A DNA stretch of 5,673 nucleotides from a virus (lineage: Duplodnaviria > Heunggongvirae > Uroviricota > Caudoviricetes): the IMG/VR virus record IMGVR_UViG_2541047120_000010; one strand, 5' to 3'. Both the position numbers and the translations under genes were made by a program. This document shows positions 1,284 through 2,762 of the stretch, piece after piece (positions within the stretch are counted from its first letter, which is position 1; every line of letters begins with the position of its first letter). A model generated the notes under the pieces. The model made no database searches and was not told where the DNA came from. It saw only the letters and a program-made list of their open reading frames with translations.

Positions 1284-1657
1284 AGAGGATAGATGGAGTT
1301 TAATGGCCATGAGTATCAAGCGGTCAAAAAGAAGTTCATCTATTCATTGAAAGCATAAGGCCATCTGAGTATATCCGTAATGATCTGGATATTGTCTATA
1401 ACATCAATGACCGGACGATAGATATCGGTGAGCAGCGTCCTGTATGGCAGGGTGAGGCAGGTGAAAAAACGTCCTGCCATCAACAAGAATCAAGTGCATC
1501 CGCTCTCTGGACAGATGGAAAATTTATTGGATGCAAAAAGATATGAAATAACACCTGTATAGCACGGAGCTTTCTCTGACCGATGCACTTGAAGTTGTTA
1601 GGGCTGACCCAGCCTGCTGTTTCTTTAGGTAAGAGAAAAGAGATTTAGGAGATGAAA

Positions 1658-1683
1658 GGTCGCAGAGGTGCGGCCTTTTTTAT
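1658..1683 (+). terminator. Intrinsic (Rho-independent) terminator, plus strand
   Basis: 7-bp stem with one G-U pair: ggtcgca(1658-1664), loop gagg, tgcggcc(1669-1675), followed by TTTTTTATT (1676-1684). The complementary strand lacks a U-tract, so it is unidirectional. Would end a cI read-through or 3'-UTR transcript. Confidence 0.6.
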
Positions 1684-1723
1684 TGAGAGTGGATCTTGAA
1701 CGGAAATTCTCAAGACTTGAGTC

Positions 1724-1752
1724 TTGCATGCAAATCAATTCCTGGATAAACT
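1724..1752 (+). promoter_or_regulatory. Candidate sigma70 promoter for the 173-aa ORF, overlapping two palindromes
   Basis: TTGCAT (1724-1729), 17-nt spacer, TAAACT (1747-1752); alternative -10 GATAAA (1745-1750) with upstream TG. The -35 lies inside the perfect 10-bp palindrome TTGCATGCAA (1724-1733), and the 13-bp palindrome CTCAAGACTTGAG (1709-1721) is immediately upstream. Placed between the 1658-1683 terminator and the ORF start at 1785. Confidence 0.35.
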
Positions 1753-1784
1753 CGATCTGAGTCAATAACTTAGAGAGAGAGCAA

Positions 1785-2306
1785 ATGGCAAAGTCAAACG
1801 TTAGCGTGCAGGCATTCAAGGACTTCCTTGAAGAGCTTATGTCGCTGAACATAATGAAGGAGGCCACCGCTCGAAATTTAAAAAACTCATCCGCTCGCCT
1901 CTTAACGGTAGTCCAAGAAGAGGAAATGGGTGATGTTACTCAGCTTGATGTGAATGAGCTTGCCGAGCGATACATCAACGCAACTGAGCCGAAGCCTAGC
2001 GACAGCAGCATTACTGCATATAAAAGCCGCATGGAAAGTGCAATCAAAAAGTTTGTAGCTTTCCAGTCTGGTGAAGAAATCCCATACACTCCGATTGACA
2101 AAGAATCCAGTGAGGAAAAAGATTTGACTGGCGAACCAACAAAAGTCGAAGGCAAGGCTAATGCACTTCATACCTATGATCTTCCAGTAGTTCTTCGACC
2201 TGAATCAGGGGTTACAGTAACGATTAAAGGCATTCCTAACGATATCACAAACGAAGAAGCCGAACGCATCTCTTCAATTCTGAAGGTTTACGTTCGGCCT
2301 CAATAA
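1785..2306 (+). CDS. Hypothetical protein, 173 aa, strongly acidic, no recognised family; cargo gene in the position occupied by rexA/rexB in lambda
   Basis: ORF-track ORF with ATG at 1785 preceded by a purine-rich stretch (agagagagagcaa). Own candidate promoter upstream and an intrinsic terminator downstream (2608-2636), isolated from cI by the 1658-1683 terminator. Many more Glu/Asp than Lys/Arg; no hydrophobic segment long enough for a transmembrane helix. I do not recognise the sequence. Confidence 0.7.
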   Translation: MAKSNVSVQAFKDFLEELMSLNIMKEATARNLKNSSARLLTVVQEEEMGDVTQLDVNELAERYINATEPKPSDSSITAYKSRMESAIKKFVAFQSGEEIPYTPIDKESSEEKDLTGEPTKVEGKANALHTYDLPVVLRPESGVTVTIKGIPNDITNEEAERISSILKVYVRPQ

Positions 2307-2479
2307 TGCAAAAGCATTCAGCACAATGTCCAACTCCCCAGTCCGACATTGATGCTGTTTAACCAGAGCCTCCAAAAGGAGCCCTTGTTAAGGTACACAA
2401 TATTTGCGATGTAACCTTAGCGCGTCTGGTACATTTTTTCAAGCGGTTGTAGGGCTGCCGCCAATATGAGAAAACACAG

Positions 2480-2602
2480 ATGTCTACATACAATTTGAAT
2501 GACCAATTCGATCGAGAAGTTCATGTGAATGCCTATGAACGGATAAGGCATGGAAATCTTGAACATGTGTGTGAGCATTATCGCTCAAGGCCACACCGCT
2601 AA
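2480..2602 (+). CDS. Possible small protein (40 aa, His/Cys/Arg-rich) ending 6 nt before the intrinsic terminator
   Basis: ATG 2480 to TAA 2600-2602: MSTYNLNDQFDREVHVNAYERIRHGNLEHVCEHYRSRPHR. Weak SD (gagaaaa). The only plus-strand ORF in the 300-nt stretch between the 173-aa ORF and the terminator. Could be chance. Confidence 0.2.
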   Translation: MSTYNLNDQFDREVHVNAYERIRHGNLEHVCEHYRSRPHR

Positions 2603-2607
2603 TCATC

Positions 2608-2636
2608 AACCCGGCCTCCATGCCGGGTTTTCTTTT
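2608..2636 (+). terminator. Intrinsic (Rho-independent) terminator, plus strand
   Basis: 8-bp perfect stem aacccggc(2608-2615), loop ctccat, gccgggtt(2622-2629), followed by TTTTCTTTT. The complement lacks a U-tract. Closes the 173-aa ORF transcription unit. Confidence 0.65.
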
Positions 2637-2762
2637 CCTCTCGCCCAAAAAAACACATAACCAATTGTATTTATTGGAAAATAAATAGATACAACTCACT
2701 AAACAACGCAATTCTGATCTCTCCTTACATCGCCGAGGCAATACACCCACGCTAAAAAACAA

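Follow-up and report, generated by a model that had tools for sequence, protein, structure and literature searches.

A mobile promoter-gene-RNA-mini-gene cassette between conserved terminators in the cI-to-N slot of VT2-Sakai-type Stx phages, a candidate addiction-like module

Lysogen-side cargo genes located downstream of cI include rexA and rexB of phage lambda, which are read from the promoter pRM, and bstA of phage BTP1, which encodes a KilA-N protein. The cI-to-N region has been described as a mosaic hotspot that may carry rexAB or bstA (Owen et al. 2021, PMC8585504). Here, the same slot is analyzed in a 5,673-nucleotide (nt) stretch of Caudoviricetes DNA (IMG/VR record IMGVR_UViG_2541047120_000010; hereafter, the window). 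Its positions 1654-2637 hold a candidate promoter, an open reading frame (ORF) for a protein of 173 amino acids (aa; ORF173), a structured spacer RNA, and a 40-aa mini-gene (ORF40). This anatomy, in which a candidate promoter, two genes, and an RNA form a mobile unit between conserved terminators, can be stated with high confidence. As to its function, the horizontally mobile three-part accessory unit is tentatively interpreted as an autoregulated addiction-like or toxin-antitoxin (TA)-like module.

The window constitutes the immunity region of a VT2-Sakai/Sp5-type Shiga toxin (Stx) phage. It shares 99.5-99.7% identity with VT2-Sakai-type records over 81% of its length, while positions 1284-2860 are 100% identical to VT2-Sakai (Sp5), Nil2, Stx2 II, phages 1717 and 2851, and about 40 further Stx-phage records. 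The gene order is cro (298-513, minus strand), OR, cI (to 1283), the studied region, OL/pL (about 2770-2845), nutL, N (to 3307), and an 83-aa gene. A previous inspection of the DNA without database searches (the sequence-only reading) proposed that the slot lacks rexA/rexB and represents a variable cargo site. Both proposals hold: no ORF in 1284-2640 matched RexA or RexB in Pfam, PHROG, NCBIfam, and PADLOC scans, and the same cargo is found beside many cI types. The block 1657-2637 is exactly the segment shared with four Salmonella prophages (85-89% identity) that differ in their cI/cro combinations; in Cronobacter, Yersinia, Proteus, and Serratia, homologs adjoin still other cI types; and in a Rac-like prophage, a homolog with 44% identity occupies the nin region, flanked by long intergenic stretches. 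Elsewhere, the slot is filled differently, with stk and other genes in 933W and with a ParA-like gene in SE1Spa. A genome-contig scan returned one species representative only (Proteus mirabilis).

The slot is delimited by two intrinsic-terminator hairpins. The left one (1654-1685, plus strand) consists of a stem-loop at 1654-1679, with an RNA folding free energy (dG) of -15.9 kcal/mol and a z-score of -3.6, followed by the U-run UUUAUU. Its stem, GGTCGCAG-N4-TGCGGCC, and the T-run are kept after cI or cI-DUF3024 in Salmonella, Proteus, and Serratia; the loop varies by lineage (GAGG, GAAA, GAGA, GAAG), the 3' arm is shorter by one base in SH2026Stx1, and 933W possesses the hairpin without the T-run. 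Homology with the Salmonella loci starts at 1657. The right boundary is a terminator of the tM/t_imm type (2608-2637, plus strand; stem 2608-2629 plus U-tract; dG -14.3 kcal/mol, z -4.3), the stem of which is kept across genera while the loop is variable. It matches the annotated tM of 933W as well as the DNA where a RexB-like exclusion gene ends in ev243 and phage 4W, and, judging from these alignments, belongs to the slot and not to this cargo. As the block shared with Salmonella runs exactly from 1657 to 2637, the cargo appears to have been swapped between two conserved hairpins. Both terminators had been placed correctly to within a few bases, at 1658-1683 and 2608-2636, by the sequence-only reading. 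Its description of the unit as a moron is accurate in part: the cargo is swappable, bears a positionally conserved, though weak, promoter-like element, is flanked by terminators, and lies in a slot that related phages fill differently. On the other hand, the GC content is not atypical (0.42-0.46 across 1650-2700 versus 0.41-0.48 in the flanks), the terminators are owned by the slot, and the contents exceed a single ORF with a 3' untranslated region.

Within the cassette, a candidate sigma-70 promoter is located at 1724-1752 (plus strand; -35 TTGCAT at 1724-1729, a spacer of 17 nt, and -10 TAAACT at 1747-1752). It is weak, with 7 of 12 consensus matches, and falls below the promoter-scan threshold. 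Eight further loci have promoter-like hexamers at the same distance from the start codon, separated by 17-18 nt of diverged sequence, and the position is conserved in nine lineages. In a register of -61 to -57 and -32 to -28 relative to the ATG, the -35 and -10 elements are TTGCAA and TAGAAT in Proteus, TTGCGC and TAGAAT in Cronobacter, TTGCTT and TAGAAT in Yersinia, TTGACT and AAAAAT in Serratia, and TTGATT and TAGTAT in SH2026Stx1, each pair spaced by 17 nt, and TTGATC and TAAACT, spaced by 18 nt, in the Rac-like prophage. Another conserved element is the perfect 14-bp palindrome AAGACTTGAGTCTT (1712-1725), which abuts and overlaps the -35 hexamer and constitutes a candidate operator; a dyad-rich candidate promoter had been noticed earlier at 1709-1752. 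The palindrome has the form AAGACT-N(1-2)-AGTCTT, e.g., AAGACT-T-AGTCTT in Yersinia. The Cronobacter and Proteus versions are 13-mers that are mutual reverse complements, while in Serratia and SH2026Stx1 only the right half-site is kept. Judging from this distribution, the palindrome looks like an operator travelling with the cassette. The 60.9-kb VT2-Sakai genome contains a single perfect copy, that of the cassette's own promoter, and no phage regulon was found: three sites with at most two mismatches were present versus 4.6 expected.

No cI operator was seen at the cassette promoter, the palindrome being unlike the annotated OL sites. Two short matches occur further downstream. Just past the second terminator, AACCAATTGTATT (2659-2671) is similar to the core of an annotated OL operator, AACAAATTGTATT (2806-2818), and within the first codons of ORF40, ATACAATTTG (2485-2497) exactly complements CAAATTGTAT of the same operator; both may be additional cI sites or mere coincidences.

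An autonomous unit is not the only way to read these signals. In the AP000422 annotation, the second terminator (2608-2636) is the terminator of the pRM transcript, so the two genes could be the promoter-distal genes of the pRM (cI) operon, expressed by read-through. The weakness of the candidate promoter and the lack of a T-run in the first hairpin of 933W agree with such an arrangement. However, the first hairpin in the window is a good terminator by folding energy and U-run, the promoter hexamers are conserved in position in nine lineages, and the Rac-like homolog, although remote from any cI, is preceded by the same promoter-like element, which makes dependence on pRM highly improbable.

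ORF173 (1785-2306, plus strand) is known as ECs1184, H0093, VT2-Sap23, or Sp5 ORF23. Its ratio of nonsynonymous to synonymous substitution rates (dN/dS) against five genera (Salmonella, Cronobacter, Yersinia, Proteus, and Serratia) is 0.12-0.27, which indicates purifying selection, and it matches phrog_2602 end to end; the ORF is therefore a genuine gene, as had been assumed. A profile search of 1.8 billion representatives recovered 652 clusters at 50% identity, 241 of them at E<=1e-10. Nearly all members are 160-200 aa long, cover both protein ends, and share the same two domains (the best 150 representatives all fall within 110-238 aa), which rules out that ORF173 is a fragment of a larger decayed gene. 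Beyond phrog_2602, neither single-sequence nor 53-sequence profile searches of Pfam, NCBIfam, PADLOC, and PDB returned a significant relative, and a Foldseek search of BFVD with the ORF173 model gave nothing significant. The protein had been called unrecognized, which is correct in that no characterized housekeeping or structural family is clearly matched, and incorrect in that the gene had already been named and belongs to a PHROG family.

The predicted structure (AlphaFold2) consists of three parts. The N-terminal domain (residues 8-94) contains four helices and is modeled confidently (predicted local distance difference test score, pLDDT, of about 88); it is predicted to fold as the core-binding (SAM-like, DNA-binding) domain of tyrosine recombinases. 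It is followed by a disordered, acidic linker (residues 102-127) that is variable in the family and by a C-terminal beta-beta-alpha domain (residues 130-165; pLDDT about 67). The recombinase catalytic domain (R-H-R-Y) is absent: the chain ends at residue 173, residues 102-173 comprise only the linker and the beta-beta-alpha domain, and there is no Phage_integrase match.

The charge and fold of ORF173 bear on the possibility that the cassette is a lysogen-expressed moron for anti-phage defense or superinfection exclusion, with the acidic 173-aa protein as its agent (a DNA mimic or a sensor). The location is suggestive, as the slot carries a stk kinase cassette in 933W, rexAB in lambda, and bstA in BTP1 (PMC8585504), and so are the candidate promoter and flanking terminators, which fit a self-contained unit; moreover, among 5426 complete E. 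coli genomes, 234 contain the cassette at 99% identity or higher. The protein itself is less accommodating. Described earlier as strongly acidic and as a possible DNA mimic, it turns out to be moderately acidic (isoelectric point, pI, of 4.85; net charge of -8, of which -4.5 in the N-terminal domain and -3.6 in the linker). Acidity is not a family trait either: pI ranges from 4.75 to 9.8 with a median of 6.8, and the SH2026Stx1 homolog (40% identity) has a lysine-rich, basic linker. As a highly acidic surface conserved across the family was not found and the N-terminal domain has a core-binding fold, an Ocr/ArdA-like DNA mimic was rejected. PADLOC-DB v2 contained no family matching ORF173 or ORF40 at E up to 1, and literature searches on defense proteins consisting only of a core-binding domain found nothing relevant. 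Moreover, a defense moron leaves the conserved RNA and the mini-gene unaddressed, and in this form it is unlikely. A defense role as such is compatible with the addiction-like interpretation; the DNA-mimic mechanism is not.

Distant chromosomal homologs (24-27% identity) show another arrangement: each is always followed by an adjacent or overlapping gene for a conserved protein of about 190 aa that belongs to no Pfam family (L017 7577-8143, L019 7564-8154, L020 7587-8177, and L023 6547-7137). The hydrophobic N-terminus of this partner is probably membrane-spanning. These pairs are a different two-gene form of the ORF173 family, outside prophages. At the metagenomic locus L034 (796-1647), a 165-aa family member is located directly upstream of Gp49/HigB-like, HI1420/HigA-like, and HicB-like genes and thus within a TA cluster. 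Both arrangements are in line with the addiction-like interpretation.

The 300 nt following ORF173, taken earlier for a mere 3' region, do lie after the gene; they are not empty and hold the structured RNA and a conserved mini-gene. ORF40 (2480-2602, plus strand; H0092, phrog_21154) is intact in Salmonella, Cronobacter, Yersinia, and SH2026Stx1. The aa identity amounts to 92% in Salmonella, 87% in Cronobacter, and 76% in Yersinia, where residues have been inserted in frame, and to 57% over 28 residues in SH2026Stx1. Its dN/dS of 0.03-0.11 indicates strong purifying selection. AlphaFold2 predicts a single beta-hairpin (residues 14-23/26-35) with pLDDT of up to 95. No convincing sigma-70 promoter of its own was found in the conserved spacer; the sole scan hit (2466-2494) implies a transcription start within ORF40 itself. 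A 53-aa ORF on the minus strand (2417-2578; VT2-Sap22 in NC_000902, ORF B55 in AP005153) was rejected as a gene, given a stop codon in Cronobacter and dN/dS of 0.8-1.0. The 3' region is not a recognizable remnant of the membrane partner of the distant homologs: tblastn found nothing. In the current Sakai RefSeq record and many PGAP genomes no coding sequence is annotated at ORF40, whereas H0092 in AP000422 corresponds to the conserved gene.

A small plus-strand ORF is an almost constant companion of ORF173. In a non-redundant survey of 8 loci and 55 viral contigs, it starts 139-177 nt past the homolog's stop codon in all but one locus, the exception being L062, for which only about 330 nt after the stop codon are available and contain no recognized mini-ORF. 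The search for a fixed partner thus yields a mini-ORF in nearly all loci, of three types. Type A (40-44 aa; phrog_21154) has the pattern V.V..Y.R.R.G..EHV..H.RS.P; type B (46-61 aa; phrog_33859) has the pattern ...CRFR..RAKAGTPDSER.LDAH.YGYKCWSFPVR; type C (47 aa; no PHROG) is Cys-rich and zinc-ribbon-like. Comparison of the profiles with hhalign revealed no homology among the three. A mini-ORF is present even beside the SH2026Stx1 homolog (40% protein identity) and a 31% homolog from a metagenome. The types are shuffled relative to the ORF173 tree (e.g., a 77%-identical homolog is accompanied by type C), a distribution that fits one conserved regulator combined with exchangeable effectors.

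Between the two genes, the spacer (2307-2479, plus strand) is predicted to form a structured RNA. In positions 2363-2479, identity is 97% with Salmonella, 91% with Cronobacter, and 81% with Yersinia, at or above that of the flanking coding sequences, while the synonymous divergence of the neighboring genes is 0.3-0.8 or more. The minimum free energy of the spacer is -52.2 kcal/mol (z -3.8); its counterparts reach z-scores of -5.0 to -5.9 in four lineages and only -1.9 in Serratia. The proposed helices are the inverted-repeat hairpin H1 (2319-2335/2340-2357), the long-range helix H2 (2362-2369/2422-2430), H3 (2370-2373/2378-2381), H4 (2387-2394/2414-2421), H5 (2436-2441/2467-2472), and H6 (2443-2447/2457-2461). 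H5 pairs UUUUCA with UGAGAA, the putative Shine-Dalgarno (SD) sequence of ORF40, located 8-13 nt upstream of its AUG and the only SD-like sequence there. The aligned spacers of the window group comprise 8 distinct sequences and have 96.4% of their cells in pairs versus 31-49% in slid controls, and 7 compensatory pairs, concentrated in H2 and H6, were counted versus 0-3 in controls; the sequences used to assess the structure are those on which it had been built, and their diversity is limited.

Spacers preceding type-B mini-ORFs (14 sequences; e.g., L006 6523-6674, L021 6520-6671, L033 5580-5718, and 11 further loci in the alignment) support a five-helix structure, with 93.8% of cells paired versus 36-50% in slid controls and 14 compensatory pairs versus 3-6; values as high as these were not attained in any of 500 shuffles. 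This RNA motif of about 150 nt comprises 37 pairs and the conserved segments UAGYGGAUC and AUCAAG, and is absent from Rfam. Conserved U-G pairs, one of which is invariant in the 14-sequence alignment, point to an RNA transcribed from the plus strand. The type-B covariance model finds an untrained metagenomic locus (E 1e-10) and matches Cronobacter and L065 weakly. Rfam 15 gave no match to the window at E up to 1 and none in the spacers of five related loci. The architecture appears alike across types; a single RNA family spanning them is not proven by these alignments. Just after the ORF173 stop codon, H1 (2319-2357) forms an imperfect inverted repeat, the central 14 nt of which (2331-2344) are found in the opposite orientation in two Salmonella loci (L012/L015 6543-6556) and in L065, relative to E. 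coli, Cronobacter, Yersinia, and L057; 13 of the 14 bases match after reverse complementing. The flip occurred more than once. Template switching at the hairpin could be the simplest cause, a real switch being the alternative.

The location of this conserved RNA immediately behind the gene, observed in almost all lineages examined, raises the possibility that ORF173 acts on RNA: it would bind the spacer of its own transcript and control mini-ORF translation or stability, with the palindrome serving another factor. In agreement with this, ECs1184 is present, at a borderline false discovery rate of 0.065, in the RNA-associated proteome (TRAPP) of strain Sakai (2025 NAR paper, PMC7618764), and the net-acidic N-terminal domain weakly disfavors generic DNA binding. 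Yet the cross-linking signal of ECs1184 in the PNK assay was no stronger than that of the sfGFP control (PMC7618764), the core-binding fold is DNA-binding in all characterized relatives, and the co-conserved palindrome is most simply the cassette's own operator; a primary action on RNA is quite improbable. Since the protein was recovered from Sakai with a signal like that of sfGFP, it is apparently made in the lysogen, as the sequence-only reading had anticipated, and is not a strong general RNA binder (PMC7618764).

Genetic data are available from Mondal et al. (2016, PMC5155283), who deleted Sp5 genes in a K-12 lysogen, in-frame and marker-free, by sacB allelic exchange. Deletion failed only for ORF21 (ECs1180) and ORF23 (ECs1184). 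The authors' own reading (PMC5155283) corresponds to a second maintenance regulator: ORF173 would repress a lytic or antirepressor function outside cI control, and its loss would induce the phage and kill the cell. Besides the failed deletion, the predicted DNA-binding fold of ORF173 and the several Ant or Roi antirepressors encoded by VT2-Sakai are in line with such a role. A phage-specific target is nevertheless unlikely for a cassette that occurs among unrelated cI, cro, and replication modules and in the nin slot of a Rac-like prophage; VT2-Sakai contains no good second palindrome at which ORF173 might act; and the obligate mini-ORF and the RNA are left unexplained. A second maintenance regulator is thus improbable.

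Considering both the core-binding fold and the co-travelling operator-like site, ORF173 is regarded, with moderate confidence, as a putative DNA-binding autoregulator acting at the palindrome. It would bind the palindrome at its own -35 hexamer and thereby autoregulate the cassette. The mini-protein would be a harmful effector kept low by ORF173 repression, while the RNA fold would occlude its ribosome-binding site and hold synthesis down. ORF173 might also neutralize the mini-protein directly, e.g., by pairing of its C-terminal beta-hairpin domain with the beta-hairpin of the latter. Like other prophage TA or abortive-infection modules, the unit may stabilize the prophage or abort superinfection. 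The ORF173/ORF40 pair may be addiction-like or TA-like, which is proposed with low-to-moderate confidence. This model would account for the failure to delete the large gene alone, the obligate yet interchangeable partner, the occluded SD sequence, and the membrane partner of the distant relatives. A more specific version is rather doubtful: an undescribed tripartite addiction or abortive-infection system, in which a catalytic-domain-less descendant of an integrase core-binding domain controls a translationally silenced mini-protein effector of exchangeable type via a DNA operator and/or a dedicated structured RNA, so that loss of the controller kills Stx2-phage lysogens.

Several observations weigh against the addiction-like interpretation. 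Neither ORF173 nor ORF40 matches a TA or defense family in Pfam, NCBIfam, or PADLOC, and ORF40 is near-neutral (pI 7.0), soluble, and resembles no known toxin. The N-terminal domain of ORF173 is net acidic, which is unusual for a DNA binder, and the C-terminal domain is modeled with only moderate confidence. The gap of 173 nt between ORF173 and ORF40 is unusual for type II TA pairs, and the type-B covariance model does not detect the spacer of the window. The failure to delete ECs1184 is a negative result from one study, shared with the unrelated ECs1180 (PMC5155283). The 439-kb E. coli plasmid pNJS001-2 (L035) carries a copy of this immunity region in which an IS3-family element (3830-5044) has entered the spacer at the position equivalent to about 2443 of the window and separates ORF173 from ORF40; this separation is tolerated there and neither supports nor refutes the interpretation.

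Upstream of the cassette, the roughly 400 nt after cI had been described as lacking a convincing ORF. No intact ORF is present, and the stretch is nevertheless not featureless. Positions 1285-1676 share 81% nucleotide identity with the post-cI DNA of 933W, phi24B, SE1Spa, and many other phages, where the counterpart gene encodes a 113-aa DUF3024 protein (ST933Wp24 in 933W, orf24 in SE1Spa). In tblastn, the DUF3024 similarity is spread over three frames (1293-1367, 1325-1465, and 1468-1626), with 80-83% protein similarity within the segments, and the lesions amount to two 1-nt deletions (-1 frameshifts) and one internal TGG-to-TAA nonsense change. As homology persists across three frames with two frameshifts and a stop codon, the stretch, by its alignment, represents a recently decayed pseudogene (1293-1632, plus strand), the remnant of a gene that 933W, SE1Spa, SH2026Stx1, and Proteus prophages carry after cI. 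The region is at least 99% identical in about 44 VT2-Sakai-type phage records. Literature searches on DUF3024 found nothing relevant.

Downstream of the cassette, the 83-aa acidic ORF that follows N (3366-3617) is ECs1180 (phrog_2471, no Pfam match), which is not a fixed neighbor of the cassette in other genera. The sole large difference between the window and VT2-Sakai is a gene at 3739-4761 that replaces Sp5 ea10/ssb; it encodes a coiled-coil protein of 340 aa (322 from an internal ATG), rich in Glu, Ala, Lys, and Arg, which matches phrog_1376 and phrog_21365 and no Pfam family.

Sp5/VT2-Sakai-type phages carry stx2a in E. coli O157:H7, and a lysogen-essential accessory unit would be a possible handle on prophage stability and, through it, on toxin production; if the tripartite system were real, the cassette would be tied to prophage stability in this pathogen. 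ORF173 represents a large family with neither a Pfam model nor a characterized member, and its mini-gene is missed or put on the wrong strand by annotation pipelines. Being compact, the cassette lends itself to testing as a candidate regulator-RNA-effector module of a new kind, including an RNA motif not in Rfam. In addition, the build of the slot itself is revealed, with two conserved terminator hairpins as cargo boundaries and a DUF3024 gene that has decayed here.

Compared with lambda rexA-rexB, an abortive-infection pair, the cassette occupies the same slot, has the same orientation downstream of cI and the same terminator class, and likewise constitutes a two-gene lysogen-side cargo. There is no sequence or domain similarity, however: the window encodes no membrane protein and contains a structured RNA and a 40-aa gene instead. 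It also differs from the rex genes in being preceded by a terminator and in bearing a promoter-like element of its own. In 933W, the order cI-DUF3024-RuvC-like-stk-small ORF-tM represents an alternative cargo of the slot, which has the DUF3024 gene, the first hairpin, and tM in common with the window; the kinase cargo is unrelated and the hairpin lacks the T-run. BstA of BTP1 is also encoded downstream of cI with its own terminator (PMC8585504), whereas the protein is unrelated and its self-immunity relies on a DNA site inside bstA itself instead of on a separate RNA and mini-gene. With respect to tyrosine-recombinase core-binding domains (e.g., PDB ID: 3nrw, lambda Int PDB ID: 2oxo, and XerD), ORF173 differs by the lack of a catalytic domain and a total length of 173 aa, also in contrast to the repressors MrpR and SroF, which derive from recombinases and retain a complete recombinase-like body; its C-terminal beta-beta-alpha domain had no detectable relative in PDB profile searches or in BFVD by Foldseek. 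From TA modules the cassette departs in several respects: a structured spacer of 173 nt takes the place of the usual overlap, neither gene belongs by sequence to a TA family (Pfam, NCBIfam, and PADLOC), and the putatively toxic mini-protein is not hydrophobic and has no enzyme fold. At the same time, the upstream acidic protein with a predicted DNA-binding fold, the palindrome at its own promoter, the small, swappable downstream gene, and the reported non-deletability (PMC5155283) recall type II TA modules, in which a DNA-binding, autoregulating antitoxin is encoded upstream of its toxin, while the RNA helix predicted to pair with the SD sequence of the downstream gene recalls the mRNA fold by which type I systems of the hok/sok kind conceal the ribosome-binding site of the toxin.

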